NCBI GenBank assembly: GCA_963676395.1
Contig: OY781066.1
Span: 1,248,001-1,312,000 of the forward strand
From: a bacterium
GTDB lineage: Bacteria; Fidelibacterota; Fidelibacteria; Fidelibacterales; Fidelibacteraceae
Direction of reading: 5' to 3'
Length of the DNA stretch: 64,000 nucleotides
The notes beneath the pieces were generated by a model. That model saw only the letters and a list, made by a program, of their open reading frames with translations. It searched no databases and was not told the DNA's origin. The stretch's first letter is position 1. Every line of letters begins with the position of its first letter. The translations under genes and the position numbers were made by a program. This document shows, in pieces, positions 26,658 to 55,016 of the stretch.

Positions 26658-26668
26658 TTGGAGTCAAA

Positions 26669-35655: not shown

Positions 35656-35657
35656 GC

Positions 35658-38426: not shown

Positions 38427-38450
38427 CATCTTTAATTGGAGAATTGTAAT

Positions 38451-38900
38451 ATGTTAGACCAGAAAGATAAGATTATTTTAAAAATACTGCAGGAGAACGC
38501 AAGGACGTCGAATGCAGAAATTGCCAGACATATGGGCATGACGGCATCTGCAATTTATGAAAGAGTAAAAAAGCTTGAGAAAGCCGGTATCGTAAAAAAC
38601 TATGAAGCTCGCTTAGAGCCTTCGGTTCTTGGTCTAAATTTATTATCTATAGTTTTGATCTCTTTGTATGATCTTACAAAGATGCGAGATACCGGAAAAG
38701 TTCTTGCCGGTTTTGATAAAATACAAGAGATTCATTACATTGCGGGCAAAGGCTCGATTATGGCGAAAGTCAGGACTTCGGGAACCGAGGACCTTGAAAA
38801 ATTATTGGATAGCATTAATTTGATAGATAATGTAAAAAACACAGAGTCTACCATCGTATTAAAATCAGAAAAAGAAACATCTAGTTTATACGTAGAATAA
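38451..38900 (+). CDS. Lrp/AsnC-family transcriptional regulator
   Basis: LDQKDKIILKILQENARTSNAEIAR...ERVKKLEKAGIV HTH, plus a RAM domain. Confidence 0.93.
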   Translation: MLDQKDKIILKILQENARTSNAEIARHMGMTASAIYERVKKLEKAGIVKNYEARLEPSVLGLNLLSIVLISLYDLTKMRDTGKVLAGFDKIQEIHYIAGKGSIMAKVRTSGTEDLEKLLDSINLIDNVKNTESTIVLKSEKETSSLYVE

Positions 38901-38917
38901 AACAATTGGAGGTTGTT

Positions 38918-40996
38918 ATGAAACGTATTGTTATTGCAACATTAGTGGCGATGTTGTTGGTCAGCACAGTATTTGCTGTGCAAATGGCTACACTACCCAT
39001 TAATCACAAAGATCGCGTAGAACGCGTAGTTAAAGAAACAGGTCGTGAGATATATAATTACTCAATGTCCAAGGCAACTGCAAAATCCGTGTCAGCCTAT
39101 GATCCGGCTTTTTCGGCTGTGTTAATCGACTCCAGTAAAAATGGTTTTGGTTTAGTTTCAGGTGTTACAAATCCTATCTCTCATAAAGATGCTAAATTTG
39201 TTATGGCTTATCGTCAATGGATAGGTATTGAAAATTCATCAGGTGCAGTAGGTATGGCCTATAGTGTTGATGGTGGTACGGTATGGACAAATCAAAGTAG
39301 TTTGAATGCTGTATCTCCCGGCGAGTTGACAGCTCGTTATCCTTCTGCTATTGGTGCAGGTAATTATCCGTTTATTACTTGGAACGAATATACCGGCGCC
39401 AATTCAGGCGTTGAAAACGATGCAGATCCTCTGTTCGTTGTAGATATGCTTGGTTTTGGTGGTGGTTATCTTTCAACCCCACAGCTTGTTGGAAATTCAT
39501 CTAATCCGGAAGGTATGTGGATGGGGTGTCCCGACTATAGTGAAGAACCAAATGGTACAGGTCACATCAATATTACTTATACAACGTGGCGTGAATTTAA
39601 TCCGGACGATGTAAGCTCACATAATATGTATCTATATCGTTCAACCGGTATTTCATCCGGTACGGTTTCATTTGCTTCATCTGAAAAAATTCTTGATGCA
39701 CTTACATATTATGAAGCCGGCTCTGCTGATGGTTCAACTACATCAGATGCTTTGATCTCAATCGCAGATAATGGCATTGGTTATGTTGCCAATGTTGCTT
39801 ATTGGGGAGCAAATCATAAAGATCTTGTAGAAGACAATGATTATCATACGTTCAAATTCCGTAAAACAACTGATTACGGCTCTACATGGTCAACAACATC
39901 ATTTGATACAGATGTTCCATATTACTATATAGAAGACAAACATTTTGATGACAATATCTTTGATACCTATATTCCTTCACAACAGTTTGAAGTAGCTTAT
40001 GGTACTGATACGGTTGTTGTTGATGAGTTAAAAGGTACTGAAGATGCGGTGCTTGATACATTAAATTATCCCGGACTTTTTATTGGTTATGATAATGATA
40101 TGGTTGTAGACGCCAATGGTGGTGTTCACTTTATGTGTCTTGTTATCCCCGAGGCTGAAGAAGCCGGTAAGATCATGCCTACAGTTCATGAAGGATGTGG
40201 ATTTTATCATATCTATTGTTCAGATCCTGCTTCATCTACAGCAGAATATGAAGTATCCTTTGTAACTTCAATGCAGAATACATGGCGTTTTTCTTATGGT
40301 AAGAGCGATAAAGCATGGCAAAGTTTCTTCCCTGTAATGGCAACATCTACCGAAGATCCAAACACCATCTACGCAGTATATCCTAAAGGAGATATCTTTA
40401 AAGAAGAAGATCCTGAATCACCTGGAGATACACTTCTTTATAGGAGAAGCTATGATATTTATATGCGTCGCTCAATAGATGCCGGTGCTACTTGGCAGGA
40501 AGAGATCAATGTAACCAACACTCCCGATTATGATGAACTGTGTGCTCATGCTGATCCTGACGCAACCGATGATAATGTTTATATTATTTATCAGGTTCCG
40601 GATTATAATATTCATACTGTTGATAATGATACCACAGATGCGGTTCCTGAAGACTATATGAACCGGATTTATTTCATGAATGTTAATTATTCGTCAGAGG
40701 TGCCAAGAGAAGATGCTGTTGTTGATGTACCTGCTAGCTTTGATCTAGCACAGAACTATCCCAACCCATTCAACCCTGTGACAACAATTGCATTTGATAT
40801 TCATGAAGCAGGTGAATATTCACTGGATGTATTTAATACACTGGGTCAAAAAGTTAAAACTTTAATTTCCGATTACAGGAATGTTGGTCGTTATGAAGTT
40901 GAGTTTGATGCTTCTGATCTATCGTCCGGTATATATTTCTATTCACTAACAAGTGATAATGTTACACTTACTCATAAAGCTGTTTTATTAAAATAA
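38918..40996 (+). CDS. Secreted Asp-box (BNR) beta-propeller-like protein with T9SS type-A CTD
   Basis: Signal peptide; SVDGGTVW, TTDYGSTW, SIDAGATW; QNYPNPFNP...SGIYFY...KAVLLK. Confidence 0.82.
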   Translation: MKRIVIATLVAMLLVSTVFAVQMATLPINHKDRVERVVKETGREIYNYSMSKATAKSVSAYDPAFSAVLIDSSKNGFGLVSGVTNPISHKDAKFVMAYRQWIGIENSSGAVGMAYSVDGGTVWTNQSSLNAVSPGELTARYPSAIGAGNYPFITWNEYTGANSGVENDADPLFVVDMLGFGGGYLSTPQLVGNSSNPEGMWMGCPDYSEEPNGTGHINITYTTWREFNPDDVSSHNMYLYRSTGISSGTVSFASSEKILDALTYYEAGSADGSTTSDALISIADNGIGYVANVAYWGANHKDLVEDNDYHTFKFRKTTDYGSTWSTTSFDTDVPYYYIEDKHFDDNIFDTYIPSQQFEVAYGTDTVVVDELKGTEDAVLDTLNYPGLFIGYDNDMVVDANGGVHFMCLVIPEAEEAGKIMPTVHEGCGFYHIYCSDPASSTAEYEVSFVTSMQNTWRFSYGKSDKAWQSFFPVMATSTEDPNTIYAVYPKGDIFKEEDPESPGDTLLYRRSYDIYMRRSIDAGATWQEEINVTNTPDYDELCAHADPDATDDNVYIIYQVPDYNIHTVDNDTTDAVPEDYMNRIYFMNVNYSSEVPREDAVVDVPASFDLAQNYPNPFNPVTTIAFDIHEAGEYSLDVFNTLGQKVKTLISDYRNVGRYEVEFDASDLSSGIYFYSLTSDNVTLTHKAVLLK

Positions 40997-41012
40997 AAAA
41001 TAAGTCAAATAT

Positions 41013-41044
41013 ACAGGCTGCCTCCTTTTATAGGAGGCACCTGT
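41013..41044 (+). other. Intergenic stem-loop without U tract
   Basis: ACAGG(C)TGCCTCCT/AGGAGGCACCTGT. Confidence 0.6.
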
Positions 41045-41060
41045 TACCTAAGGGGATTGT

Positions 41061-43946
41061 ATGAAGAAAGGTTATATCCTTTTTGTGGTTTGTTTGATGT
41101 TTTTTGGTGTCGCCTTTGGCGATATTGTTGGTTCTGTAAGAGGAACGGTTGTGGCGGCCGAAACCAACGAACCCTTAATGGGCGTCAATATCATGGTAGA
41201 AGGTACCTCTGTTGGTACTTTTACCGACCAAACAGGCTATTACAATATCATTAACTTACCGATCGGAGAATATAATGTCACTTATACTATGATCGGTTTT
41301 AAAAAAATTATTCAAAAAAGCGTAAAGGTCATTCGAGACCAATCAACTATTATTAATGCGCGTATGCAGGTCGAAGCCGTTCAGGGCGAGGTTGTAGAGG
41401 TCATTGCCGATCGTCCTTCTGTAGAAAAGGATGTTGTTGGTCGTAAGGTTGTGATGGAAACGGAGCAGGTGGTTAATTTACCTGTTCGCGATATGACGGA
41501 AGTTTATACGCTTCAATCCGGTATTATTGAGATCAAAACAGCCGATCTTGGTATCCCCGGGTTTGAAGAACGGGGTATCGAACAGATACACGTTCGAGGT
41601 GGTCGAGCTAACGAAACAGGTTTCATGATTGATGGTATGTATATTGAGAATCCGCTTTACGGTGGTAAAGGTAAGGGAACTCGATTAAATCAGTTTGCAG
41701 TTGCTCAGGTTGATTTTCAAACCGGCTTTTTTAATGCTGAATATGGTGATGCGATGTCCGGTATGATCAATACTGTTACTCGAACCGGTCCCTCTAAATT
41801 TTCCGGTATGTTGCGATATGAACGCTCAGATTTTGGTCCCATTTCTTCAGAACAGGATCAATTAAGAAATTTCTCAAAAATTGCCGGTGGATTTGGCGGA
41901 CCTCTTATCACCGATAAAATCAGATGGTGGACTTCTTTTGATCAAACTAATTCGGCATATGCGGTTTATAAGTTTGATGATCTTGCTTTTGATAAAGAAA
42001 ATCCACTAAGCGATTATAATGTCAATAATCATATAAATCCTTTGGATACAATTGCCGGTTGGCGTTCCTTTGGTTTTGATAACACCTTTGATATTTTTTC
42101 AAAGTTGACTTTTTTGATCTCTCCAAAGATTAGAATGAATTTGTCGCATTGGTATGTTAATTCAAATTATAAAGCCTTTGATCCCTCATATATCTATTAT
42201 GATTTGGGTAAAAATGAAGTTGAAAAAATTTCTAAACGCTATGCTATAGAATGGCGTCATCAGTTGAACGATAAAACATATTATACTGTAAACTATTCTG
42301 ATTTTACTCAAGAAATGACCATGGGTGTTAGAAACTATGATTCTGATGGCGATGGTTATCCCGATTGGGTAGAACAGCGTAATCTTGCAGATTTTTATGA
42401 TAGTACAAAAGTGCCGTACATGGATGATGGAAACGGAAGCAATATTCCTTTGGAATATGTTTTAGATGGAGCTGATACACTTTGGCGCCTGGGTGATGAA
42501 ATGAATGAATGGCTTACTGCCGAACAGTATAATCAACCTTGGGTTCTTGCTCCTTTTGTCGATGAGGATATGATTATTGAGTATCAGAACAGTCCGAATT
42601 TAAAAGCTTATTGGGCAGAATACTATTATAGTGGTGCCGATAGGTATTATCATTATACTAAGGCACGTACAAAAGAGTTGAGGTTTGATTTGACTTCACA
42701 AGTCAGTCGACATAGTCAGATAAAAACAGGAATAGATTATAAAACACATCAGATTACATTTGATGAGGTTCAGTTGCCATGGCTATCAACACCTTATACT
42801 GAAAACTATTATCGAGTACCTCAAGAGTTTGCCGGATATGTTCAGGATAAGATTGAATATCCCTGGATGGTCATCAATGCCGGTTTGCGCTTTGATGCAG
42901 CCAACGCAAATGACTCCATGTGGGTAGATCCACGCGATCCTCTTTCCGGTATGGAACCTACAAAATGGGAATTTCTCTGGAGTCCTCGCTTAGGTTTTTC
43001 ACATGTGATCACAGATAAATCAACCTTTACATTTGGTTATGGTATTTATTATCAGAACCCTACTTATCGTGATATTTACAACAATATTGATGAACGTGAA
43101 AATCTTGATCAGTTTTTTACATCTCCAAGTCCATTGATGGGTAACCCGAATGTTAGTGCTCAAAAAGTAACATCGTATGAATTTGGTATCAATACCGAAG
43201 TCGCTAGAGACTATGTTCTGGGTGCAGTTGGTTGGTCTAAAGATTATTCTAACATGAATTCAACAGAAAAGGTTCGTTCCGGATCTGTTTCATATACAAC
43301 TTTCGTGAACTATGATTACGGTTCAGCTCGCGGTGTGGATATTATTTTCGAAAGGAGACGCGGTCGTTTCCTTACCGGTAATATTCAGTACACCTATTCG
43401 CGTGCAATGGGTAATCGTTCCGACCCCTGGGAAGGATATCGAAATGGTGAAGACCCCATTACAATGCCTAAAAGAGAAGTATTACAGGATTATGATAGAA
43501 CTCACGATTTTTCAGCTCAGCTGACATTTAGATTGCCTGAGGGCTATGGTATTCCCGTTGGTAGATATCATTTATTTCAGAATACGATGACGAATTTGAC
43601 ATTTGTTGCAATTTCGGGTGCGCCTTATACACCTATCTTATCAAATGATAAAGCGGGACCTACAAACTCAGAACGTATGCCAACTTATTTTACAACGAAT
43701 TTGGCATTCAGAAAGTATATTAAGATGTTTGGATCGACTCGTTTAGTTTTGGGCTTGGTTTGTACCAATCTTTTTAATCGCATGAATGAATTGTATGTAT
43801 ATCCTCGTACCGGAACTGCAGACAATCCTGGCGGTATTGATGAAGGCTATATTCTCGATGGAATCGTAAGTTCAAGTTACTATGATCGTCCATGGTATTA
43901 TGATGATCAAAGATCCCTTGACTTCTTCCTTGAAGTCGAGTTTTAA
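41061..43946 (+). CDS. TonB-dependent receptor with N-terminal carboxypeptidase-regulatory-like domain
   Basis: EPLMGVNI.VEGT..GT.TD; plug motifs HVRGGRANE..FMIDG and GFFNAEYGDAMSG; NAGLRFD; SPRLGFS; C-terminal Phe. Confidence 0.92.
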   Translation: MKKGYILFVVCLMFFGVAFGDIVGSVRGTVVAAETNEPLMGVNIMVEGTSVGTFTDQTGYYNIINLPIGEYNVTYTMIGFKKIIQKSVKVIRDQSTIINARMQVEAVQGEVVEVIADRPSVEKDVVGRKVVMETEQVVNLPVRDMTEVYTLQSGIIEIKTADLGIPGFEERGIEQIHVRGGRANETGFMIDGMYIENPLYGGKGKGTRLNQFAVAQVDFQTGFFNAEYGDAMSGMINTVTRTGPSKFSGMLRYERSDFGPISSEQDQLRNFSKIAGGFGGPLITDKIRWWTSFDQTNSAYAVYKFDDLAFDKENPLSDYNVNNHINPLDTIAGWRSFGFDNTFDIFSKLTFLISPKIRMNLSHWYVNSNYKAFDPSYIYYDLGKNEVEKISKRYAIEWRHQLNDKTYYTVNYSDFTQEMTMGVRNYDSDGDGYPDWVEQRNLADFYDSTKVPYMDDGNGSNIPLEYVLDGADTLWRLGDEMNEWLTAEQYNQPWVLAPFVDEDMIIEYQNSPNLKAYWAEYYYSGADRYYHYTKARTKELRFDLTSQVSRHSQIKTGIDYKTHQITFDEVQLPWLSTPYTENYYRVPQEFAGYVQDKIEYPWMVINAGLRFDAANANDSMWVDPRDPLSGMEPTKWEFLWSPRLGFSHVITDKSTFTFGYGIYYQNPTYRDIYNNIDERENLDQFFTSPSPLMGNPNVSAQKVTSYEFGINTEVARDYVLGAVGWSKDYSNMNSTEKVRSGSVSYTTFVNYDYGSARGVDIIFERRRGRFLTGNIQYTYSRAMGNRSDPWEGYRNGEDPITMPKREVLQDYDRTHDFSAQLTFRLPEGYGIPVGRYHLFQNTMTNLTFVAISGAPYTPILSNDKAGPTNSERMPTYFTTNLAFRKYIKMFGSTRLVLGLVCTNLFNRMNELYVYPRTGTADNPGGIDEGYILDGIVSSSYYDRPWYYDDQRSLDFFLEVEF

Positions 43947-43957
43947 GGAGTATGTAC

Positions 43958-46900
43958 ATGAAATTTATAAAAAAAATTGTATGTTTAATTTTGCCGGTGC
44001 TTGTATTTGCAATTCCTATGGAAGTCAAGTATGGTGCGTCGTTTGCAAAAAGCAGCACACCGAATCCGATCTATGAGCGTGCTAAATCATATGCTGATCA
44101 AGGTAAATTCAAAACATGTGTTTTGAATTATGGTAACTTTGTGGATCATTGGCAAGAAGATGTTGCCGGTGCATGGGGTGATTACCAATACCTTGCAAAT
44201 GTTTCTTTTATGATTGGTGTGCCCGGACAAGATAAAGAAGGAAATATTTATCCTTGGGCTTATCGTCCACACCCTGATCCTGAAAGAACAGATAGCATCT
44301 ATTGGGGTGCAACGGTTTCAGAATCTTGGTTGGATCGTACTGCGAACCAGGTTAATACAGACTGGGACGTTGTCGTTGGTTCCAAAGGAAAAACTTATTC
44401 CGGTGATATAACAGCCGGAGATTATGTTGGAGGTGTTTGGACACCTGAAAGCGATACATGGCCACTTTTGGCGACATCTATTGCTCCTGAATCCTGGCCT
44501 AAACGTGATGATGGCGAAGGAAATGAGGAAAGCTTTTGGCCCGGTTGGTATGCAATTGATACAGACCCCTCATCACCTACATATGGCAAAGAGGTTGAAG
44601 GTCGTTTTACATCTGATGTGGATATTTATCTTGAGATAGATGATGCCTATGCAGATCGCGAACCCGTATCATCTTTCAATGGTTATCCTACGGGCACCAA
44701 AGTGTTAGCTACCGTCCACTCTTATGGTCGCGCTTACGCCGAAGATATTATGTTCGTTACAATGAAAGTGGTCAACGCTTCTAATGAATATGGTTTGAAT
44801 AATGGAGAAGGATTCAACTATAAGGGAACCTATTGCGGCTTTTATTTTGATGCAGATATGTTCTCGGCATTTTATCATGGTGGTGCACGCCCATGTAATA
44901 CCAACGACGGTGATATGATGGGTTATAATGCAACCTATGATTATGCATTTATTTATGATCTTGATCAGGAAGAATGTGGCGGAGCTTATGATGTTGATGC
45001 TTTTGTAGCGGTTAAATTACTGGATACACCCAATGCATCTGATACGGTATGGACTAGTGAAACAGACTATATAGCTCCGGGTGAAGAATTGGGCTTGACC
45101 GATTGGCATTGGTTTGATTGGTATAACCGCCCAGGCGTTATTAACAAAGAAGGTTCGGGTGGTCCTTTTATTGGGAACGGAACTCAACCTGAATCACCTA
45201 AAAAAGAAGAATTGATGTATCAGTTAATGGCCGGTGATACGACCGGATTAACCGAAAAAGAAGATGAATGGTATTTTCATCCTGATAATCGTGGTGATAC
45301 TAATCCTCATTATGACAGTATGGAGGGACTTTTGTCAGCATTCCCAGATGGTTTGGATTGTGTTTGTATGATGTCGGCTGGCCCCTTTGACTTTAATGTT
45401 GGTGATACGGCAATGTTTTCATTTGCTGTTATTATGGGAGAAAATATTCCTGATCTAAACCGTAATGCAAATATGGCTCAGATCATGTATGATTTGCGTT
45501 ATCAGGGTTTTTCGGCTCCCATTGCTCCCACGGTTTCCGCTGTAAGCGAATGGAATTCTGAAACAGAAGAAATGGCGGTGCGTTTGGTTTGGGATGATGC
45601 GGCAGAATCTTCAACCGATATTGTTACTCAGTATCCTGATTTTGAAGGTTACCGTGTTTACAAATCTACCGATGGTGGTCAAACATGGGGAGATCCAATC
45701 TATGATACATATCAGACTCATGTAGGTTATAAACCTATCGCACAATTTGATTTAACCGCTGTTGAAGACATGGCTCGCTATGGTCGTGAAGTATCCGGTC
45801 AAGATCCAATGGCTCCCTGGTTTGATCTGGGAAGTAATACCGGTTTGCAACATGAATATGTTGACCATGATGTTCAGGTAGGTAAAGAGTATACTTATTC
45901 AGTTACAGCTTATGATATCGGTATTGAACCCGGTTTTACTATTGATGTTAGCTATGAAGATGTAGTAGATCCTAGCTCTGGCTTAACCTATCAGGTGATT
46001 AAGTATGATACCACTTGGTCTAAAACTAATGTTGATGAACAATGGGCTGCTTATTCCTTGGAATCTTTAGAGAATACTAAAGGAACAACGCCCCGGTCAC
46101 CTCAGTTTGTAAGAATTACTCCCTCAAGGTATCCTATTGATATCAAGGCGGAGATCGATCTGGTTCCCAGTGATAGCACGGTCGGTAATACACCAACATT
46201 AATTCGCATTGCTGAACCGAACAAAGTAATAGATCATGAGTATAAAATCACTATCGAAGCTAAGGATGCTACGGCAATTAACTTTAAGACGGGTCCATAT
46301 ATTAAAAACCCGACTTATACTGTTATAGATGTTACGGCAGGTGATACGATTGTTGAAAATCTTTCAAATAATGATATTAACCCTGATGATCCGAATACAT
46401 TTCGACCGATTTTTGATGGTCTACAAGTTGTGTTTGACAATATAGAAAGAGCAAGTGTAGATTCTGTGAAATGGGCTTCAAACCAACAGTATATTGAAAC
46501 ATCTCCTTGGTCAACCTTGCCTTTCCCACCGGCATCTGATTATGCAATTATTTTTGGTTCGGCAGATGAGGTGCTTGATACGGTACTATGGAATACACCC
46601 TTCGCAGAAAGACCTGCGCCTTTTAAAGCGATTAAACTGCCAAGTGGCGAAAGAGTTCAGATATTAGTACTTGAAGATGGTAATTCAAGAGATGATACAT
46701 TGAACTACCTTGATGATATTTCTTTCTATGAGGCAAATGTACCTGGAAGACCTGTTGGACTTTCGATTCCTACATGGGCTTTTGAGTTTTCTTGGGATAC
46801 CACGTTGGTGAAACACACAGGTTATCCGTTTACACCGGGAGACACATTGTATTTTAGAACGTTCAAACCATTTGAAGATGGTGATGAATTTACCTTTACT

Positions 46901-47236
46901 GCAGCCGATTTCTCCGAAGAAGTTGAGTTGACAGATGAGGATCTGAAACGCATTAAGGTTGTTCCAAACCCATATATGGTTTCTGCTCAGTGGGAACAGA
47001 GTGAATATGAGAAAAGAATGCTATTCACAAATCTTCCGACTAAGTGTGAAATTAGTATCTTCACCTTGACTGGGGAGTTTGTTAATAAGGTTGTTCATGA
47101 TAATGAATATGATGATTCTGAGGCGTGGGATTTAACAACCATTAACCGCCAGGAAGTAGCTCCGGGACTTTATGTTTTTACGGTTGAGCTTTCAGATGGC
47201 AGAACCCATATTGGCAAATTTGCCATTATACGATAA
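43958..47236 (+). CDS. Large acidic secreted protein with FN3-like module and FlgD-Ig-like sorting tail (VVPNPY...GKFAIIR)
   Basis: Sec signal without a lipobox; DFEGYRVYKS...YTYSVTAYD FN3-like module; AAGGAG SD favours ATG 43958. Confidence 0.75.
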   Translation: MKFIKKIVCLILPVLVFAIPMEVKYGASFAKSSTPNPIYERAKSYADQGKFKTCVLNYGNFVDHWQEDVAGAWGDYQYLANVSFMIGVPGQDKEGNIYPWAYRPHPDPERTDSIYWGATVSESWLDRTANQVNTDWDVVVGSKGKTYSGDITAGDYVGGVWTPESDTWPLLATSIAPESWPKRDDGEGNEESFWPGWYAIDTDPSSPTYGKEVEGRFTSDVDIYLEIDDAYADREPVSSFNGYPTGTKVLATVHSYGRAYAEDIMFVTMKVVNASNEYGLNNGEGFNYKGTYCGFYFDADMFSAFYHGGARPCNTNDGDMMGYNATYDYAFIYDLDQEECGGAYDVDAFVAVKLLDTPNASDTVWTSETDYIAPGEELGLTDWHWFDWYNRPGVINKEGSGGPFIGNGTQPESPKKEELMYQLMAGDTTGLTEKEDEWYFHPDNRGDTNPHYDSMEGLLSAFPDGLDCVCMMSAGPFDFNVGDTAMFSFAVIMGENIPDLNRNANMAQIMYDLRYQGFSAPIAPTVSAVSEWNSETEEMAVRLVWDDAAESSTDIVTQYPDFEGYRVYKSTDGGQTWGDPIYDTYQTHVGYKPIAQFDLTAVEDMARYGREVSGQDPMAPWFDLGSNTGLQHEYVDHDVQVGKEYTYSVTAYDIGIEPGFTIDVSYEDVVDPSSGLTYQVIKYDTTWSKTNVDEQWAAYSLESLENTKGTTPRSPQFVRITPSRYPIDIKAEIDLVPSDSTVGNTPTLIRIAEPNKVIDHEYKITIEAKDATAINFKTGPYIKNPTYTVIDVTAGDTIVENLSNNDINPDDPNTFRPIFDGLQVVFDNIERASVDSVKWASNQQYIETSPWSTLPFPPASDYAIIFGSADEVLDTVLWNTPFAERPAPFKAIKLPSGERVQILVLEDGNSRDDTLNYLDDISFYEANVPGRPVGLSIPTWAFEFSWDTTLVKHTGYPFTPGDTLYFRTFKPFEDGDEFTFTAADFSEEVELTDEDLKRIKVVPNPYMVSAQWEQSEYEKRMLFTNLPTKCEISIFTLTGEFVNKVVHDNEYDDSEAWDLTTINRQEVAPGLYVFTVELSDGRTHIGKFAIIR

Positions 47237-47248
47237 AGGAGAGCGAAG

Positions 47249-48298
47249 ATGAATATTATTAAACGATCAATCATCTTATTGGCCGTTCTGAGTCTAAGCT
47301 TCCTTTTTGCTCAGACAGATCCTATAGATATTCCTACCGATGTTTCTAAGGTAGGTACACACGCTGCTCAATTTTTAAAATTGGAAGTTGGTGCAAAAGC
47401 TGCTTCATTGGGTGGTGCGTATGTCGCGGGTGTAAGTGATCTTACTGCATTGCATTGGAATCCAGCCGGTTTATCAAAGGTTGGCCAACAGTCGGTATAT
47501 GGAACTTATATGAATTTATATGCAGGTATTCAGCATGGTTTTGTGGCCTATGGTACGCAGCTCGGCCGCTCTGATTACTTTGGAGTAAGTGCTACATACT
47601 TAAATTCCGGTCAAATGGAAGTAACAAATATAAATTTTCCCGAAGGCTCGGGACAGTTCTTTTCTGTTAGCGATATTGCCATTGGTTTGAGTTATGCAAG
47701 AAATCTAACCGATCGCTTGAGTGTTGGCGCAACCGTTAAATTTGTGAATGAAACGATTTGGCGTGAAAGCGCTTCAGCATTTGCTTTTGATATTGGTTCA
47801 CAGTTTGATACAGGTATTCTTGGAATTAAGCTTGGAATGGCCGTAACGAATTTCAGTACAAAATTTCAATTTCACGGTCCCGACTTGTTAGTTCCCGTAG
47901 ATACTGATGATCAATATGCTGGTAATCCCGAAACTGATGCGTATTTGGCAACAGAAGAATGGGCTTTGCCTTTAGTGTTCAGGCTTGGTATTATGGTTGA
48001 CATGGTGGGGCCAAATTCAGAGATCTTAAAAAATCGTGATCACCGGGTAACATTTTCATTCGATGGAAATGATCCATTGGACCATTATTTGAGATTCAAT
48101 ACGGGAATGGAATATTGCTTCCAGGAAATGTTCGCATTGCGTATGGGATACCACCTAAACTATGATAAGGCTTCCTTTTCAGCCGGTGTAGGCTTGAAAA
48201 TGAATGTTAATAGTATGCCTTTGAATATTGACTATGCTGTAGTAAATTATGGTACTTTAGGACTGGTTAATCAGGTAAGTATTCAAGTAGGAATATAA
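47249..48298 (+). CDS. PorV/PorQ-family (FadL-like) outer-membrane beta-barrel
   Basis: AAQFLKLEVGAKAASLGGA, ALHWNPAGL, FDIG, LPLVFRLG, IDYA. Confidence 0.85.
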   Translation: MNIIKRSIILLAVLSLSFLFAQTDPIDIPTDVSKVGTHAAQFLKLEVGAKAASLGGAYVAGVSDLTALHWNPAGLSKVGQQSVYGTYMNLYAGIQHGFVAYGTQLGRSDYFGVSATYLNSGQMEVTNINFPEGSGQFFSVSDIAIGLSYARNLTDRLSVGATVKFVNETIWRESASAFAFDIGSQFDTGILGIKLGMAVTNFSTKFQFHGPDLLVPVDTDDQYAGNPETDAYLATEEWALPLVFRLGIMVDMVGPNSEILKNRDHRVTFSFDGNDPLDHYLRFNTGMEYCFQEMFALRMGYHLNYDKASFSAGVGLKMNVNSMPLNIDYAVVNYGTLGLVNQVSIQVGI

Positions 48299-48331
48299 AT
48301 AAAGAAAAAAACTTGAGAAAGGAGAACTCAC

Positions 48332-51205
48332 ATGAAACGTGTAGTTGCTTTGTTATTGATTGCTTCTGTTGTATTGTTTGCAGCAGTAGCTCCTCAAAGT
48401 TCTCTCAAGAACGCCAACGAATTACAACGGGTAAAAACAACAACAAATGCTGTTGCTAAAACTACTCCCGTAATTAATTCGGATGTAAAAACTCGTGATA
48501 TCAATTTAAGTAATGCTCCGGCATTAGCAGTTGATCCATCAGTTGTTACAATTGTGTATCTTGAAGACTTTGAAAACGGTGCTAATGGTTGGACTCAGTT
48601 CGACGGCACAGCTCCCGATCCTCTTGCTGAATGGCATTTGGATGATTTCCAAACCGGAGACTCGCTATGGTGGTGTGGAGCTTACTCGGTGGGTGGTTAT
48701 TTGAGTAATTGGAATGTTGCTCTTGAAACTCCTGAAATTGTTTTGACTGCTGGAGATTCAACGCTATCTTTTCAATTGAATCTTCACGTTGAAAGTCCGG
48801 GCGGTGAGCCTGAGGGTTATGATGCCTGGGATGGAGCTAACGTTCAAATCACAAACGATGGTGGTGCCACTTGGACAGTTTTAAATCCAACAGGCGTTCC
48901 TTATAATGCTTCAAGCTTGTATTCATTCGGATATATTTTCGAGATGGGTCCGGGACAACCCGGTTGGGCCGGTGCCGTTTCCGGTGAAGCAGAAGTTGAT
49001 CTAGGTGCATATATTGGCGATACTGTAAAACTTCGTTTTGTATTTTGTTCTGATGGTGGTTTTGACGCAAGTGATGATGGCAGCATGTTTGGCATGGAAA
49101 TTGATTCGATTGATGTTGCCGGTGACGCAACCTATAATGGTTCGGTAACCGATGGTTTAACATCAGTATGGGCCGGTCCTGTCGCTTCGGGTGCATACTG
49201 GGCAATTGAAGATAGAGTTGATTCTATTCCTTCGCCTACACATGTTCTTCGTAACTGGGTAAATGGCGATACAACATATGCTCGTAATCTTGAAGATTAC
49301 TACGTGTCACCTACAATCACTCTTCCCGATGAACCTGCAACATTGATCTATTGTGATTTTGATTTTTGGGCAGATTTTCAGGATGAAGTTGGTGAGTTTC
49401 CCGCCACAGAATATTGGCGTTTAGAATATTCTACGGATGATGGTGAAACTTGGTTCGGTATTTCTGAAATAGAGGGTGAAAACTTTGTTTATAGTGAAAG
49501 AATTCCCCAATGGTATGCTTTTACCACCGCATATGATGCATCATGTAATCTAACTGATTTTGCAGGTCAAGATATAAAATTTCGTTTTTACTTCCGTTCA
49601 GATGAAGATAAACCCGGTGGTCAGGGCCTGATGATAGATGATTTTGTTGTTTATACAAAGCCAGATCTTCCTATTCCGCAGAATGTTACCGCTACCCTTA
49701 ATGCCGGTGATGTAGATGTTGCATGGCAAGATATGAATGCTACTTATCAGCTTCCTAAATCATGGATGGGGCTAGAAGCCGTTGATTATGCTTATTATAT
49801 GCCCGGTGCTTCAGGTGCTTTTTCATCTTTACCGGATACCACTGGTAGTTCTTGGGCAATGTCATATTCCACCGATGGAAAAGATATTACATTTACAAGC
49901 TTAGATTATGTTTTTGCTAATAATAATCCTAGTAATGATAGTGTTCAAATCGTTCTATGGGGAATTGATACAGCCGGATATCATCCATTATATATTTCTG
50001 ATGTTTTTGTTCCCGATGCTGTAACATCTCAGCAATCCATTGACATATCTTCAGAAGGTGTGGTTTGGAATGGCGATTTTGAAGTTGAAGTGTTTTGGGT
50101 TTCAAATTCTACATATCCTTTGACATTTGCTGGAGATGGGGAAGGTACAATTTATGTCCCGGGTGCCGGTTATTATAGTGTTAGCTATTCAGTGCCATTT
50201 GGAGCTTCCGGATACGGTGAAGTTACATATAGTGGTCTAGAATACAATCTGTTCCGTCGCGTTGCTTCACAATCTGTTCCTGTTGAAATTGCAACTGGAT
50301 TGACTTCAAATTCATATACAGATGAAGACGCTGATAATTTTGTTGAATATGAATATACAGTAGCCTGTGCAACACCTTCTTTTACCGGTAACGTTAGCAG
50401 TGGTGCTTCAGTATTTGTATATCCTCCTGACGTAGAAGAGGCAAAACACGATGATGGTACTTTTGAAGCTGTTTGGGCACTTGGCATGGACACAACAGTT
50501 GTTGTGAAAATTACTCCTACAGCATATCCCGCAACACTTGAAGCTGTTCGTTTTAATGCTTTGTGGGCCGGCGATGCCTATAAAATAAAGATCTTTAAAG
50601 ATGATAACGGAATGCCCGGTGATTCATGGTTGATGATCGAACCTCCTGTTACAGCTATTGCAGGTTGGAATGCATTTAGTGTTCTCAATCCTTTGACTGT
50701 TGATAACGGAAACGGTGTTGTACTTCGTGATGGTGAATCCTGCTGGATTGGTGTTAAAGGTGCAACAGCTGCTGAGCGCGCTTGGCTTGCTGCAGATACA
50801 AGTTCATTTTCCGGAATGGCTGCAATGCAGGTACCTGGTGGCGGTTGGGCTTCAGTAGCACCATTTATGATGGCTAACCCCATGATCCGTGGTTATTTTG
50901 ATACAAGTATCGATACAACTTCAATCGAAGATTTTGTACCGACAGAATACGTTCTGAATCAGAACTATCCTAACCCCTTCAACCCCGTTACTACAATTCA
51001 TTTTGAATTGAAAGAAAGTGGCATGACAAAAGTAGACATCTTTGATGTTGCGGGTCGTCACGTACGCACTCTTTTGAACGGTACTGTTGATGCTGGTGCA
51101 TATGATCTGAATTTTGATGCTTCTGCATTATCAAGTGGTGTTTATTTCTATCGCTTGACTTCAGGTTCTTTCACCGATATTAAGAAAATGTCATTGCTTA
51201 AATAA
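48332..51205 (+). CDS. Secreted multi-jelly-roll (MAM/cleaved-adhesin-like) protein with FN3 and T9SS type-A CTD
   Basis: Two repeats of ..DGG.TW...RF.F.SD....G..ID; QNYPNPFNP...SGVYFYRL...KMSLLK; no HExxH seen. Confidence 0.8.
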   Translation: MKRVVALLLIASVVLFAAVAPQSSLKNANELQRVKTTTNAVAKTTPVINSDVKTRDINLSNAPALAVDPSVVTIVYLEDFENGANGWTQFDGTAPDPLAEWHLDDFQTGDSLWWCGAYSVGGYLSNWNVALETPEIVLTAGDSTLSFQLNLHVESPGGEPEGYDAWDGANVQITNDGGATWTVLNPTGVPYNASSLYSFGYIFEMGPGQPGWAGAVSGEAEVDLGAYIGDTVKLRFVFCSDGGFDASDDGSMFGMEIDSIDVAGDATYNGSVTDGLTSVWAGPVASGAYWAIEDRVDSIPSPTHVLRNWVNGDTTYARNLEDYYVSPTITLPDEPATLIYCDFDFWADFQDEVGEFPATEYWRLEYSTDDGETWFGISEIEGENFVYSERIPQWYAFTTAYDASCNLTDFAGQDIKFRFYFRSDEDKPGGQGLMIDDFVVYTKPDLPIPQNVTATLNAGDVDVAWQDMNATYQLPKSWMGLEAVDYAYYMPGASGAFSSLPDTTGSSWAMSYSTDGKDITFTSLDYVFANNNPSNDSVQIVLWGIDTAGYHPLYISDVFVPDAVTSQQSIDISSEGVVWNGDFEVEVFWVSNSTYPLTFAGDGEGTIYVPGAGYYSVSYSVPFGASGYGEVTYSGLEYNLFRRVASQSVPVEIATGLTSNSYTDEDADNFVEYEYTVACATPSFTGNVSSGASVFVYPPDVEEAKHDDGTFEAVWALGMDTTVVVKITPTAYPATLEAVRFNALWAGDAYKIKIFKDDNGMPGDSWLMIEPPVTAIAGWNAFSVLNPLTVDNGNGVVLRDGESCWIGVKGATAAERAWLAADTSSFSGMAAMQVPGGGWASVAPFMMANPMIRGYFDTSIDTTSIEDFVPTEYVLNQNYPNPFNPVTTIHFELKESGMTKVDIFDVAGRHVRTLLNGTVDAGAYDLNFDASALSSGVYFYRLTSGSFTDIKKMSLLK

Positions 51206-51225
51206 GCGAATAGGACATAGATATG

Positions 51226-51259
51226 AAAAGCCCGGATGTATTTCCGGGCTTTTTGTTTT
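51226..51259 (+). terminator. Intrinsic terminator
   Basis: AAAAGCCCGGA-N6-TCCGGGCTTTT followed by Ts. Confidence 0.9.
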
Positions 51260-51400
51260 ATGCTTTTTTAATGTATTATAGCCTGGTATTTAAACTCGTG
51301 GCTTTTGTGAAGGTTTTAAAACGGTATCTGCATATTTAGCTCTTTACCCATGCAAATAAATTTATTATACTTAGAGTCTAATCAAAAAATGGAATGATAT

Positions 51401-54400
51401 ATGAAAAAAACCTTGAAAATCATAATGTTAGTGACTTTGTCGCTGAGTGTAGCCTTTGCTGTTGAGGCTTACTATGCAAATCAATATCTCTTCAATTTGA
51501 ATGCTGATGAGATGCCTTTAACAAAAGAGCAAATGCAAACGTTAAAGACACCTTATCCGCATTTAAATAAATTAATAAAGAAATATGATGTGGTTCGTAT
51601 AGAGCCATGGTTAAAACATGCTAAAGCAGATGAATCGTTTGATGGGGTATATTTAAACAGGGTTTATCGTTTGGTTACTTCTGCAATACAACCCGCTCCT
51701 CTTTTAATCGCAGATGAAATTGCTTCATCATCAAAAAAAATTATGAATGCCGAACCTGAAGCGATCATGCGAACATCTTCTGCTATACCTAATGACCCGG
51801 GTATGGGTAAGCAGTGGTTCTTGCATAAAGCAAACGTACCGGATGCTTGGAAACTATGGAACTTGGAAGCGGGAGAAGTGCCAGGTGATAGAAGTATAGT
51901 TGTGGCTGTTGTTGACGATGGTGTGGAATATACTCACCCGGATTTATGGAAAAACATATGGATTAATCAGGATGAGATATCTGCAACATATTTTGGACTA
52001 ATTGACACAGATGCAAATGGATTTGTTACGCCAGAAGAAGCTGTTGCTTTTACCGGTGATCTGAATGGAAATGGGAAAGCTGATCTTAGAGATGTGTTGT
52101 CCTCCATGTCACCTCTAACTGATGGTGTAGATAATGATAGCGATGGTTATATTGATAATATCATTGGTTGGGACACTAACGAATCAGGACGTTCCTCTGA
52201 TGATGATAAAGATCCAATGGTAACGAATAATTCTCATGGAACACATGTTGCAGGTCTTGTTGGAGCAACAAGCAATAATGGCGTTGGGGTTGCATCTGCT
52301 GCTTATAATATTTCTATTATGGCCGTAAAGGCGACCGGAGACGAAACGGTTTTAAGTATTAATACGGGATATGATGGTATGTTGTATGCAGCTCAGGCCG
52401 GAGCCGATATTATTAATTGTTCTTGGGGTGGTCCGGGCTATAACTCCTATGCCCAAACTCTTATATATACCATCACAAACACCTATGGTTCTTTAATGAT
52501 CGCTGCAGCCGGTAACGGTGACGATTACGGGAATCCGGATGATACACCGCACTATCCTTCTGGCTACGATAATGTTATATCTGTAACGGCAGTATCTTCT
52601 TCAGATGTTTTTTCATGGGCGAATTATGGAGCGGCTGATGGGAATTTTAAAGGCATTGATATTTCAGCGCCCGGCGAAAGCTTGTATAGCACCTATTTAA
52701 CAAAAGATAATCCATATGCTTATTTGACCGGAACTTCTATGGCGTCACCCTTCGTGGCTTCATGTTTTGCTTTACTTAAGTCGGTTTATCCCGATAGTTC
52801 AAATGAATGGTTGACTGAACGTATGCTAAACAATACTGATCCTATAGATCATTTAAATCCTGATTTCGCCGGTGAACTGGGGAGAGGCCGAGTTAATATG
52901 CTAAAAGCTTTGGTATTTGATAAATGGCCAAACTTGAGCGTAGCGAAACTTAATCAAAGTATTGGATCTGGAGATGGTGATTCTATTTTGAATCCGGGTG
53001 AAACCGTTGATGTAAACCTAGAGTTGATGAATGATAGTGGTTGGACTCAAGCATCTCAGGTTTCAGGAGTATTATCAACTGATGAAGAAGGTGTTTTGCT
53101 TTTAGATTCTATTGCTTCTTGGTCATCAATTTCTTCCGGTAGCAGTTTGCTTAATGAAGGGAATGGTTTTAAAATTCAGTTTGATTCTGATGCAGAGATA
53201 AAAACCTATAGTTTTAATCTTGATTTGCTTTCGAATGAAGCCGGTAGTTTTCCATATCGCAAAACTTTAAAGATTAATATTGACCTTTCACTTGTTCAAG
53301 AAGGTTTTCCATTTTATGCAAAGACTGAGGTAGAGGCAGGTGTTGTTTGCGCTGATGTTAATGATAATGGAAATCAAGAGATCATTTTTGCAGATAAGAG
53401 TGGTTACTTATATATAATTGACGCCATGGGCGATACACTTCCTAATTTTCCTATTGCTCTGGGCTCACAACCCGGTGGTATAGCAGTCGCTGATATTGAT
53501 CTGGATGATACGCTTGAGATCGTGACTACTTTGTTTGATAAAAAGGTTCAGGTATATGATGTAAGCGGAAAAAAAGAATGGTCACGTAAAGCAGGGCTTT
53601 TTATTACCGGATTGCCCGCTATTGGTAATTTGGATGCCGATCCCGAACTCGAAGTTGTTTTTACTGCCTATGATCAAAAAATATACGCTGTAAATCATGA
53701 CAGTACTGATGTTCCGGGTTTCCCATATTTAACAGGACAATTGCTTCATAGCGGTCCCTCTTTAGCAGATATAAATGGCGATGGGAAAGATAATATTATC
53801 GTTGCTTCAAAAGGTGGGCAATGTCTTGTATTGAATAGTGATACAACCCCTATGACTTCATGGCCGGTAAATGGATTAGGCTCAATTATCGCGGAGCCAC
53901 AGGTAATACTGGGTAATGATACTTCTGCAGTAATACTTGTTGGTAACGAAGGTGGAGATATATATGCATTAAATATCGATGGTAGCCAAAGGTTTAGTGT
54001 TAATGGTTCCGGTTCAATTAGAACATCTCCTGCATTATATTTTGATGGAGGAGAAGCTTTTGCATTTTTTGCTACAACGACAGGCAATATTTATAAAATA
54101 GATTTAAATACCGGAGACCTGGTAGAATCATGGCCAAAAACGATTGCATCACAATTGTATCATTCTTTAACTATTTGTGATATACCCGTAGAAGGAAGCA
54201 TGACCCCTTGTATTCTTGCTATGGGTAACAATGGAAAACTTTATACCATGGATTTGAATGGAAATTCTGTAGGGAATAATTTTCCCTTGGATACGAAGTA
54301 TTTATCAAAATCTTCACCGGTCCTAAGTGATATAGATGCTGATGGTGATTTAGATATTATTACCGGAAACTATTCGGGTGTTACTGTTCAGGATTTAAAA

Positions 54401-54769
54401 ACCATTATGGGTACCAATTATTGGCCGATGCATAAGGGTAGTGCAGATAGACGAGGATCTGTAAGTCAAATGTTAACGTCAGTCGATGATGGGTCAATCT
54501 TGGCAAACACGTTTGAATTAATGGGTAATTATCCCAACCCTTTTAATCCAACTACCATGATCAGATTTACTATTCCTTCAATATCGACAATGACATTGAA
54601 AGTATATTCCTTAGATGGTAAGGAAGTATATTCAAAGGCATATCAAAACATGAGCGCCGGAGTCAATGAAATTGATCTTAATATGAATAGCTTTGCTTCA
54701 GGTCTATACATCTATTCCTTGCGTTTCGGTGATCTTGTTAAAAACTCTAAAATGATCTTAATGAAATAA
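51401..54769 (+). CDS. S8 subtilisin-like serine protease with FG-GAP/VCBS repeats and T9SS type-A CTD
   Basis: Catalytic triad VAVVDDGV, HGTHVAG, GTSMASP; ADxxxDGxxEI repeats; NYPNPFNP...SGLYIY...KMILMK. Confidence 0.93.
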   Translation: MKKTLKIIMLVTLSLSVAFAVEAYYANQYLFNLNADEMPLTKEQMQTLKTPYPHLNKLIKKYDVVRIEPWLKHAKADESFDGVYLNRVYRLVTSAIQPAPLLIADEIASSSKKIMNAEPEAIMRTSSAIPNDPGMGKQWFLHKANVPDAWKLWNLEAGEVPGDRSIVVAVVDDGVEYTHPDLWKNIWINQDEISATYFGLIDTDANGFVTPEEAVAFTGDLNGNGKADLRDVLSSMSPLTDGVDNDSDGYIDNIIGWDTNESGRSSDDDKDPMVTNNSHGTHVAGLVGATSNNGVGVASAAYNISIMAVKATGDETVLSINTGYDGMLYAAQAGADIINCSWGGPGYNSYAQTLIYTITNTYGSLMIAAAGNGDDYGNPDDTPHYPSGYDNVISVTAVSSSDVFSWANYGAADGNFKGIDISAPGESLYSTYLTKDNPYAYLTGTSMASPFVASCFALLKSVYPDSSNEWLTERMLNNTDPIDHLNPDFAGELGRGRVNMLKALVFDKWPNLSVAKLNQSIGSGDGDSILNPGETVDVNLELMNDSGWTQASQVSGVLSTDEEGVLLLDSIASWSSISSGSSLLNEGNGFKIQFDSDAEIKTYSFNLDLLSNEAGSFPYRKTLKINIDLSLVQEGFPFYAKTEVEAGVVCADVNDNGNQEIIFADKSGYLYIIDAMGDTLPNFPIALGSQPGGIAVADIDLDDTLEIVTTLFDKKVQVYDVSGKKEWSRKAGLFITGLPAIGNLDADPELEVVFTAYDQKIYAVNHDSTDVPGFPYLTGQLLHSGPSLADINGDGKDNIIVASKGGQCLVLNSDTTPMTSWPVNGLGSIIAEPQVILGNDTSAVILVGNEGGDIYALNIDGSQRFSVNGSGSIRTSPALYFDGGEAFAFFATTTGNIYKIDLNTGDLVESWPKTIASQLYHSLTICDIPVEGSMTPCILAMGNNGKLYTMDLNGNSVGNNFPLDTKYLSKSSPVLSDIDADGDLDIITGNYSGVTVQDLKTIMGTNYWPMHKGSADRRGSVSQMLTSVDDGSILANTFELMGNYPNPFNPTTMIRFTIPSISTMTLKVYSLDGKEVYSKAYQNMSAGVNEIDLNMNSFASGLYIYSLRFGDLVKNSKMILMK

Positions 54770-55009: not shown

Positions 55010-55016
55010 CACCCAT

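Follow-up and report, generated by a model that had tools for sequence, protein, structure and literature searches.

The window analysed here is a stretch of 64,000 nucleotides (positions 1,248,001 to 1,312,000 of contig OY781066.1, assembly GCA_963676395.1) from a bacterium of the family Fidelibacteraceae. It carries a locus of seven genes, at the centre of which lies a trio: the gene for a TonB-dependent transporter (TBDT), the gene for a large acidic protein that we call BIG, and the gene for an outer-membrane barrel of the PorV/PorQ family, called PorVL. The tail of BIG resembles, in a variant form, the C-terminal domain (CTD) by which type IX secretion system (T9SS) cargo is sorted. The genes for receptor, BIG and PorVL are conserved as a close-set unit, which is found again beside other secreted enzymes. 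With somewhat better than even confidence, we read the locus as a SusD-free, TonB-powered outer-membrane unit for nutrient capture, the surface partner of which would be anchored by PorVL and the target of which would be a protein or glycoprotein. That is, the locus probably does for proteins what SusC/SusD of Bacteroides does for sugars. An earlier note on this DNA, made from the sequence alone, had proposed a SusD-free uptake system; that interpretation is partly supported. Coordinates of all features of the locus are collected in Table 1.

The argument starts from gene order. The BIG profile was built on alignment A1, which holds 35 homologues; it matched 306 encoding places in species-representative genomes, and 79 loci were kept. 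The open reading frames (ORFs) of these loci were searched with the seven proteins of the window locus, and neighbours were counted only where the locus had room for them; in locus L084 the ORF call contained no BIG ORF. Of 71 testable loci, 62 encode a TBDT directly upstream of BIG; for PorVL in the directly downstream position the count is 55 of 64 (58 of 64 if any downstream position is accepted). The earlier note had asked that the triplet be conserved, and these counts bear it out. The genes are also closely spaced: the median gap is 9 nucleotides both for receptor-to-BIG and for BIG-to-PorVL, and gaps of 30 nucleotides or fewer are found in 49/57 and 59/69 cases, respectively.

Conservation extends beyond the trio. 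Downstream of BIG, a homologue of the MAM-like CTD protein is present in 46 of 51 testable loci and a homologue of the S8 subtilase in 33 of 40, and a homologue of the BNR-like protein is found in 39 of 51. The order BNR, receptor, BIG, PorVL, MAM-like, S8 is kept at BIG identities of 33–40%, including in Calditrichota (L062, L064, L067, L068 and L082). KSB1 loci keep the order in part: in L044 no BNR gene is matched and the MAM-like and S8 genes are matched only weakly, and L071 has inserted genes and no S8 gene. Because the arrangement recurs in dozens of loci and in several phyla, it is far beyond what chance would produce.

In one lineage (L047, L051, L059, L065, L066, L072, L073, L074 and L077), the unit is extended to receptor, BIG (~1030–1065 residues), barrel, short BIG (~720 residues) and barrel. 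The short BIG covers only profile positions ~530–1078. Nine loci thus hold two variant-tail genes, and in the five that were compared each tail gene is followed by a barrel gene of its own. The two barrels of a locus are 41–42% identical in three of the five and 98.5–100% identical in two; the latter values could reflect recent duplication, gene conversion or an assembly effect.

BIG is not confined to a few lineages. Its closest named relatives are in Candidatus Marinimicrobia / Neomarinimicrobiota (Fidelibacterota) bins, and more distant ones are in Caldithrix abyssi (37% identical), Calditrichota, KSB1 and 'FCB group' bins. Within the phylum, 195 of 201 sampled genomes have BIG relatives; the figure is 136 of 141 for high-quality genomes and 78 of 78 for genera. 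Searched against 1.84 billion representative proteins, the BIG profile matches 9197 clusters at E ≤ 1e-3, 4694 at E ≤ 1e-10 and 1258 at E ≤ 1e-30; the core shared by the family spans profile positions ~480–1078. Six of the sampled genomes have no BIG. In the five of them that were examined, the PorVL profile gives partial matches only, at 29–90 bits, to be compared in the source genome with 187–524 bits for the module barrels and 86.7 bits for the canonical PorV. The receptor profile matches only N-terminal parts in the same five genomes. Since three of the five share one genus with 0.8-Mb genomes, these are about three independent cases.

The source genome, one contig of 2,335,625 bp (38.1% G+C, 95% estimated completeness), holds several copies of the module. 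A hidden Markov model (HMM) of the BIG tail scores eight of its proteins at 33–157 bits, and ordinary CTDs at no more than 27.7 bits. Seven of the eight variant-tail proteins are encoded in five loci, each of which has a receptor from a single clade and a barrel from a single clade. The receptor clade accounts for 6 of the 16 TBDT-like ORFs of the genome, at more than 700 bits, and the barrel clade for 5 of the 9 PorV-family ORFs. One of these loci (L093, genome 508001–527500) encodes a receptor of 927 residues, a BIG-like protein of 1286 residues and a barrel of 343 residues, then a CTD protein of 660 residues, a GH13 amylase with a CTD, a Glt-type symporter and a GH13 cyclomaltodextrinase-like enzyme. 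It is a SusD-free alpha-glucan locus. As its paralogous trio adjoins GH13 enzymes, the trio serves an alpha-glucan locus too, and this paralogue supports the view that the trio is a general module for uptake, paired with secreted enzymes suited to each substrate. The 1286-residue paralogue carries Asp-rich repeats of the calcium-binding type. Window BIG is 26% identical to it from residue 467 to the end, the N-terminal domain having diverged. One PorVL paralogue also touches PF11751 (PorP/SprF), at 37 bits.

The genome also encodes a shorter variant-tail class of 716–784 residues, ending in KKFIIIR or GRFLVIK, which has only the tail in common with BIG. In L095 (genome 607501–627000) and L096 (genome 2090001–2102500) proteins of this class share their loci with one receptor or two, with a PorV-like barrel and with predicted lipoproteins of 490, 240, 506 and 451 residues. 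One more short variant-tail copy, at genome 665655–668009, is without such neighbours.

A complex prediction suggests how BIG may be held at the cell surface. PorVL (alignment A2) was modelled with BIG residues 985–1094 (from A1) in three runs, with three controls. The interface score ipSAE is 0.91–0.92 in the three runs and 0.00 in the best of the controls. The partner has a predicted local distance difference test score (pLDDT) of 80, the runs share at least 95% of their contacts, and the contacts include the invariant residues G1072, L1073 and K1089. The C-terminal domain of BIG is thus predicted to dock on PorVL (0.92 against 0.00 for the best control); of the interfaces that the earlier note had proposed, the modelling covered this contact between tail and barrel. 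PorVL, of 349 residues, belongs to the PorV/PorQ family: it scores 199.4 bits with NF033709 (cut-off 90) over residues 37–347. It remains below the specific models for PorQ (NF033711, 115.4 bits, cut-off 220) and PorV (NF033710, 83.3 bits, cut-off 250). The CTD of PorZ is retained and is bound to PorQ (PMC10202324). The same review proposes that cognate PorV-like barrels shield CTDs from cleavage, as type B cargo is shielded with PorP/SprF (PMC10202324). By analogy, BIG and PorVL fit the pattern of a retained CTD and its cognate barrel.

The receptor is, from its domain profile and predicted model, a true TonB-dependent transporter. It matches PF13715 (CarbopepD_reg) at 63.3 bits and PF07715 (Plug) at 24.4 bits against a cut-off of 23.9. 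PF00593 does not match the window receptor, but it does match two paralogues, at 94.7 and 75.9 bits. On reading the sequences, a GEVVEVIAD-type stretch is conserved between the N-terminal domain and the plug in the window receptor and its paralogues; it is a candidate TonB box. The predicted model (pLDDT 82.4, predicted template-modelling score (pTM) 0.82) has a plug-and-barrel fold. Foldseek matches it to PfeA (E 8.5e-28), and among the 50 Foldseek matches listed there is no SusC-like chain. A PDB sequence search with the receptor gave no match. In the VIA structure comparison, the matches include BtuB (Z 33.1, 537 residues aligned), FusA (Z 30.2, 623 aligned), FecA (Z 30.2) and YddB (Z 28.2). 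The SusC-like chains ButC, BT2264 (5fq6_B) and RagA score Z 27.0, 25.4 and 24.9, respectively, and the transporter entries 8blw, 9gbc and 9clm, from the capped systems BtuB-BtuG, XusA-XusB and TbpA-TbpB, score Z 29.3, 26.0 and 19.2. The N-terminal domain matches the transthyretin-like domain of carboxypeptidase D (Z 10.6). By TIGR04056, which gives 32.1 bits against a cut-off of 368.25 and covers residues 26–198 only, the receptor lies outside the SusC/RagA family.

BIG itself belongs to no annotated family. Pfam and NCBIfam, and a search of the PDB with the BIG profile, yielded no sequence match; all 397 relatives are labelled 'hypothetical', and an Atlas look-up returned unnamed clusters only. 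The protein is rich in acidic residues (D+E 16.0%, K+R 7.0%). Its AlphaFold2 model (pLDDT 72.5, pTM 0.61) is almost all beta, with a signal peptide ahead of the domains of Table 1. Foldseek with the whole of BIG against the PDB gave only generic Fn3/Ig chains, at very low TM-scores; the domain assignments rest on the VIA search. For the N-terminal supersandwich, that search gives 9ju0 (Z 16.8, 258 residues aligned, root-mean-square deviation (rmsd) 3.6), 1lf6 (Z 16.5) and 1ulv (Z 16.4). The matched structures are N-terminal accessory domains of GH15/GH65/GH94/GH116-type enzymes, the P1 domain of YidC and aldose epimerases. The N-terminal 660 residues are highly conserved in A1, with many invariant Asp, Glu, His and Trp residues. 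No recognisable catalytic domain appeared in the Pfam, NCBIfam, PDB and VIA comparisons. Nor does BIG look like SusD/RagB, as it has no SusD Pfam domain, no helical TPR-like fold and no lipobox. The earlier note would have been refuted by a recognisable enzyme or a SusD homologue; BIG is neither.

The tail (residues 992–1094) has as its best VIA match the CTD of PorZ (5m11_A, residues 683–776), with Z 11.1, rmsd 2.3, 92 residues aligned and 22% identity. It has the T9SS sorting-domain fold, that is, a seven-strand beta-sandwich that closes the chain and has a conserved Lys shortly before the C terminus. This residue, K1089, is invariant in the 35 sequences of A1, and a conserved Lys is a feature of type A CTDs (PMC10994853). 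PF18962 and TIGR04183 do not match the BIG tail at E ≤ 0.01; in the Atlas cluster of the 1286-residue paralogue type, PF18962 is present in 61% of members. Taken together, the models indicate that BIG is a Sec-exported, non-lipidated, multi-domain protein of the surface type, with a C-terminal domain of the T9SS sorting-domain fold.

Components of a possible export route for such a protein are encoded in the genome. SprA (706 bits) lies ~20 kb beyond the window and PorU (613 bits) at genome 1961363–1964677. The best PorV candidate, of 466 residues, scores 208 bits (cut-off 250) and is encoded beside an M6-like inactivated metalloprotease. There are ~55 ordinary type A CTD proteins. SusD (PF07980, PF14322) has no match in the whole one-contig genome, and the Bacteroides thetaiotaomicron control does match. 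A further gene, just beyond the window (L099:6727–12587, genome 1318727–1324587), encodes a 1605-residue PorU-like protein with a CTD (NF033707, 210 bits; PorU2-type N-terminus, 127 bits), and is followed by the gene for a weak PorV/PorQ-family barrel of 350 residues. In addition to the canonical PorU, the genome may have in these two a further pair for sorting. It was also considered whether the window locus is part of the T9SS attachment complex itself; this was rejected, as the canonical PorU and PorV are elsewhere and there are five paralogous trios.

Table 1. Features of the seven-gene locus, in window coordinates (aa, amino acid residues).
Feature	Coordinates	Strand	Basis or detail
Lrp/AsnC-family transcription regulator	38436..38900	+	154 aa from TTG 38436; alternative ATG start 38451
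BNR_CTD: secreted protein, 696 aa; three Asp-box motifs, T9SS type A CTD	38906..40996	+	PF18962 44.7 bits; TIGR04183 40.3 bits
Conserved RNA hairpin with no T run after it	41013..41044	+	In the 64-nucleotide spacer between BNR-CTD and receptor genes
TonB-dependent transporter, 961 aa	41061..43946	+	CarboxypepD_reg-like N-domain, TonB-box-like GEVVEVIAD, plug, 22-strand-type barrel
BIG, acidic secreted protein of an unannotated family	43952..47236	+	1094 aa; 1092 aa from ATG 43958
BIG residues ~40-520, galactose-mutarotase-like beta-supersandwich	44069..45511	+	VIA structure matches
BIG residues ~528-1000, conserved Fn3-like domain, then variable beta-sandwich domains	45533..46951	+	Secondary structure of the model, Foldseek Fn3/Ig, conservation in A1
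BIG tail, residues 1002-1094, variant T9SS-CTD-like beta-sandwich (VVPNPY...GKFAIIR)	46955..47233	+	Structural match to PorZ CTD
PorVL, PorV/PorQ-family (FadL-like) outer-membrane barrel, predicted cognate partner of BIG	47249..48298	+	NF033709
Secreted protein, 957 aa; MAM/jelly-roll-like repeats, T9SS type A CTD	48332..51205	+	PF18962 43.1 bits; TIGR04183 40.9 bits
Intrinsic-terminator-like hairpin	51223-51256	+	14-pair stem, 6 G-C pairs, T-rich tail/T run
S8 subtilase, 1122 aa; FG-GAP/beta-propeller region, T9SS type A CTD	51401..54769	+	PF00082 168 bits; PF18962 35.3 bits; TIGR04183 46.0 bits

The three secreted proteins that accompany the trio are ordinary T9SS type A cargo, all of them above the TIGR04183 cut-off of 23 bits. 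The Asp-box motifs of BNR_CTD, at residues 120, 321 and 523, were found by reading, the signal with the BNR model being sub-threshold; its signal peptide has no Cys. In the Atlas, its leads are BNR_4/sialidase-like clusters at 0.78–0.82, weak matches that are all under 0.9. The 957-residue protein comes close to the InhA-like MAM model PF20773 (26.3 bits, just below the cut-off of 26.9), and no HExxH motif was found in it. Neither it nor the BNR protein has a PDB sequence match. In the subtilase, the regions of the Asp, His and Ser motifs are visible in the sequence, the catalytic assignment being made by reading.

The layout of the locus is much as it had been described. All seven genes lie on the + strand. 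With the longest ORFs, the gaps among the first six are 5, 64, 5, 12 and 33 nucleotides; with ATG starts they are 11–64 nucleotides, the values that the earlier note had given up to a terminator. The terminator-like hairpin lies 195 nucleotides from the subtilase gene. Pfam and NCBIfam agree with the gene identities that had been read from the translations, namely Lrp/AsnC regulator, Asp-box protein with CTD, TBDT, acidic 1092-residue protein, PorV-family barrel, jelly-roll protein with CTD and subtilase with CTD, the BNR and MAM signals being sub-threshold. The claimed lack of a lipoprotein, a SusD-like gene and a glycoside hydrolase also stood: reading of the signal peptides of the locus showed no lipobox, and Pfam and NCBIfam found no glycoside hydrolase or SusD domain in the seven genes.

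The regulator has both an AsnC-type helix-turn-helix (PF13404, 54.8 bits, cut-off 27; PF13412, 58.5 bits) and a ligand-binding (RAM) domain (PF01037, 47 bits, cut-off 25), and it is thus a member of the Lrp/AsnC family. Its top NCBIfam models are LrpA, AsnC, LysM and Lrp, all under their equivalog cut-offs. In the spacer before the receptor gene, an alignment of nine close relatives shows compensatory two-sided changes, in at least one sequence, at 5 of the 10 predicted pairs of the conserved hairpin. A ribosome-binding site, AAGGGG, is directly 3′ of this hairpin. The hairpin may serve in processing, stabilisation or attenuation and thereby determine the ratio between the upstream genes and the receptor.

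The proposed working of the locus is as follows. We infer that SprA would be the passage of BIG across the outer membrane, the PorV-like barrel acting as its carrier, and that BIG would then retain its tail and stay on PorVL as PorZ does on PorQ. Its binding domains would in this way be held at the mouth of the transporter, where BIG may contact the receptor and act as a lid. The BNR propeller, the MAM-like binder and the S8 subtilase would be exported by the general T9SS route, and would bind and cut an extracellular polymer. Fragments of the polymer would be passed to BIG and then pulled through the transporter with TonB energy. As to the substrate, the subtilase is conserved in the cassette and the Lrp gene is present in close relatives, so the window copy most likely acts on a protein or glycoprotein. 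A protein is also suggested by the proteolytic lifestyle of Caldithrix abyssi, which grows on proteinaceous substrates (PMC5317091).

The proposal can be taken further. Receptor, BIG and PorVL might be one stable machine with a T9SS-built, anchored cap, old and general in the non-Bacteroidota members of the FCB group, where it would stand in place of SusC/SusD; the six-gene cassette, shared by Marinimicrobia, Calditrichota and KSB1, would then be its protein-capturing version and a main route by which these bacteria obtain detrital protein. We regard this extended form as doubtful.

Several observations weigh against the proposal and are gathered here. In structure, the receptor is no nearer to SusC/RagA (Z 24–27) than to BtuB/FusA (Z 30–33). 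In calibration, 116 of 157 solved complexes and 2 of 215 mismatched pairs attained the ipSAE mark of the docking; these counts hold only roughly here, because our own alignments were used. Structures of SprA-PorV-CTD have been solved (PMC10994853), and the docking may therefore mirror likeness to these. The receptor is not directly upstream of BIG in 9 of 71 loci; among irregular loci, L028 is a frameshifted assembly, and L058 and L071 have inserted or missing stretches. In six of the nine, all Marinimicrobia bins (L075, L079, L083, L085, L086 and L087), a BIG homologue of ~1040–1060 residues has neither neighbour. The locus contains no inner-membrane transporter and no periplasmic peptidase. 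Of the 51 loci that extend 6 kb or more upstream, 10 have an Lrp gene there, and these 10 are all close relatives. The supersandwich and the BNR propeller are typical of carbohydrate-active proteins, which makes a glycan or glycoprotein target possible. As to the earlier argument that protease and Lrp point to a polypeptide, the protease is kept in 33 of 40 loci and Lrp in close relatives only, and the propeller and supersandwich are equally typical of carbohydrate-active proteins. The export route is also incompletely recovered. The models for GldL and GldM have no match in the source genome, and control genomes are equally silent, so that their absence is not established; GldK reaches 64–67 bits against a cut-off of 350, with FGE-domain matches like those in control genomes that have no T9SS. 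Of the T9SS translocon for which the earlier note had proposed a search, SprA, PorU and PorV are therefore present, and the motor components are not recovered. The T9SS motor and ring may be very divergent, or replaced, in this phylum.

Two side observations belong to these points. In five of the six loci with neighbourless BIG (L075, L079, L083, L085 and L087, not L086), a membrane-type ORF of 367–413 residues precedes BIG, and L075, L079 and L083 have upstream of it a CTD protein of ~1870 residues, of which L085 and L087 hold C-terminal fragments only. Of the two GldK-like matches, one is in the window (21964–22926) and is a lipoprotein of the FGE-sulfatase type.

Other readings of the locus have to be set beside these data. 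BIG might be a free-standing surface binding protein or adhesin, similar to SusE/F, that is co-regulated with the receptor and forms neither a lid nor a stable complex. The 6 of 71 related loci in which BIG adjoins neither receptor nor barrel would be expected on this account, and a binding-type supersandwich followed by Fn3/Ig spacers is an architecture found in many surface binding proteins. However, the receptor-to-BIG order and its median spacing are kept across phyla, and BIG-less genomes have no full-length receptor of the module type; together, these two facts fit an obligate partner better than an optional accessory, and we consider the free-standing protein unlikely. A different objection concerns the target rather than the machine. 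The unit might work as proposed on a glycan, a glycoprotein or a cell-wall fragment, with the subtilase serving in maturation or as a side activity. The match of the BIG N-domain to accessory domains of carbohydrate enzymes (up to Z 16.8) points that way, as do the first secreted gene, an Asp-box propeller with weak sialidase-like leads, the paralogous trio in the alpha-glucan locus and the poor conservation of Lrp. The seven genes, however, contain no glycoside hydrolase, lyase or esterase domain, and the S8 protease, kept in most loci, is the only recognisable enzyme among them. This alternative seems to us about as improbable as the preceding one.

Less probable still is that BIG belongs to an enzyme family not yet recognised, such as one of hydrolases that degrade polymers, and that the barrel displays it while the receptor imports its products. 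The very conserved N-terminal 660 residues, with their many invariant Asp, Glu, His and Trp, would suit an active site, and the lack of a match to any known family leaves room for a novel one. Yet the fold matches are only to non-catalytic accessory or binding domains, and it is the N-domain that diverges most in paralogues beside amylases, as expected of a binding module. Finally, the receptor might work outward, like Oar of Myxococcus xanthus, and the locus would then be a device for secretion or surface assembly. Oar has the same succession of CarboxypepD_reg extension, plug and barrel, and is needed for secretion of the subtilisin-like PopC (PMC6434023); a subtilase is present in the window locus as well. 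But PopC has no signal peptide (PMC6434023), whereas the subtilase of the locus carries one for Sec as well as a CTD of the ordinary T9SS kind; SprA, PorU and PorV are in the genome, and the same trio occurs in an amylase locus. We give this reading very little weight. A nutrient-capture unit directed at protein or glycoprotein remains the account that we favour.

The favoured arrangement has partial counterparts among known systems. As in SusC/SusD and RagA/RagB, the gene for a large surface partner comes immediately after that of a TBDT of the CarboxypepD_reg type, both being placed in loci that are specific to a substrate and also encode secreted enzymes, and a genome holds paralogous copies for different substrates. 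RagAB of Porphyromonas gingivalis indicates that such a pair can import peptides (10.1101/755678). Unlike SusD, however, BIG is no lipoprotein and lacks the helical SusD fold, and the third gene is that of a PorV-like barrel. The likeness to PorZ-PorQ is that a T9SS protein would keep its CTD and be held at the surface by a dedicated PorV-family barrel (PMC10202324); moreover, the BIG tail has the PorZ CTD as its best structural match, and PorQ, at 115 bits, is the best specific model for PorVL. In contrast to that pair, PorVL is under the PorQ cut-off of 220, five such barrels are present here, each beside a receptor, BIG has no PorZ-like propellers, and the genome has a separate PorU. SprB-SprF, with its type B CTD, offers a cargo gene that adjoins its own barrel gene as an alternative carrier or anchor (PMC10202324, PMC10994853), but here the barrel is PorV/PorQ and not PorP/SprF, the tail is of another family, and the pair is linked to a TonB transporter.

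In BtuB-BtuG, XusA-XusB and TbpA-TbpB, too, a surface binding protein caps or feeds a TonB transporter. The partners in those systems are lipid-anchored, whereas the anchor predicted here is a protein barrel reached through the T9SS. FusA and YddB are among the best structural matches of the receptor, and FusA, the ferredoxin importer, takes up a whole small protein and works with a protease. These are proteobacterial systems with no sequence-level relation to the receptor and no T9SS partner. Oar shares the CarboxypepD_reg extension, plug and barrel (PMC6434023), but it is implicated in export of a protease without a signal peptide, and nothing in the present locus points to export by way of the receptor.

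No description of a TonB receptor combined with a T9SS partner and a PorV-like barrel was found in the literature searched, the coverage of which left out most subscription journals. In a 2026 review of glycoside transporters, the terms PorV, T9SS and type IX do not occur (PMC13543919). This window contributes the protease-linked cassette with an order conserved across phyla, the BIG family that is nearly universal in its phylum, the BIG genes without neighbours, and the undetected motor genes. Oceans and sediments harbour Marinimicrobia (SAR406), Calditrichota, KSB1 and related groups in abundance, most of them without cultured members. We know of no described mechanism by which Marinimicrobia, Calditrichota or KSB1 capture polymers at their surface. 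Whatever its function, BIG exposes a very large unannotated protein family (9197 clusters, 195 of 201 phylum genomes). If the proposal is true, these groups have a counterpart of the SusC/SusD paradigm, and the role of type IX secretion extends from releasing enzymes to assembling uptake machines. The trio would then be an annotation marker for substrate-utilisation loci outside Bacteroidota, and the protease-linked cassette a candidate marker of protein use. Cultured carriers, Caldithrix abyssi among them, open the model to direct test.

The surroundings of the locus add some minor observations. Its flanks are housekeeping genes. Directly upstream (window 24727–38110) is a surface-glycan cluster with several glycosyltransferases, a Polysacc_synt flippase and an asparagine-synthase-like amidotransferase. 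It includes a VimE-like deacetylase (30083–31411, 137 bits against a cut-off of 440) and an AAC(3)-like acetyltransferase (29061–30041, 90 bits, far under the cut-off of 270). In Porphyromonas, the sugar through which T9SS cargo is attached to the surface reportedly comes from the Wbp/Vim pathway; given this and the VimE-like gene, the cluster might make the anchor glycan of the ordinary CTD proteins. In nine close relatives (L010, L012, L014, L017, L018, L019, L022, L023 and L027), the first ~4 kb of the locus hold instead a second BIG-like gene and a PorV-like barrel directly upstream of Lrp. Since the glycosyltransferase cluster occupies that position here, the region is rearranged relative to those relatives. 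Further away, on the − strand at window 5419–8096, is a methyltransferase-cognate corrinoid protein, best matched by the glycine-betaine protein MtgC (191 bits, cut-off 370), near a radical SAM protein; it hints at methylated-amine metabolism and is unrelated to the trio. On the other side of the locus, a tRNA-Val gene (anticodon TAC, 54935–55010) lies between the subtilase gene and a hydrophobic ORF of 140 residues, and a terminator-like hairpin (55017–55035) follows 3′ of the tRNA.

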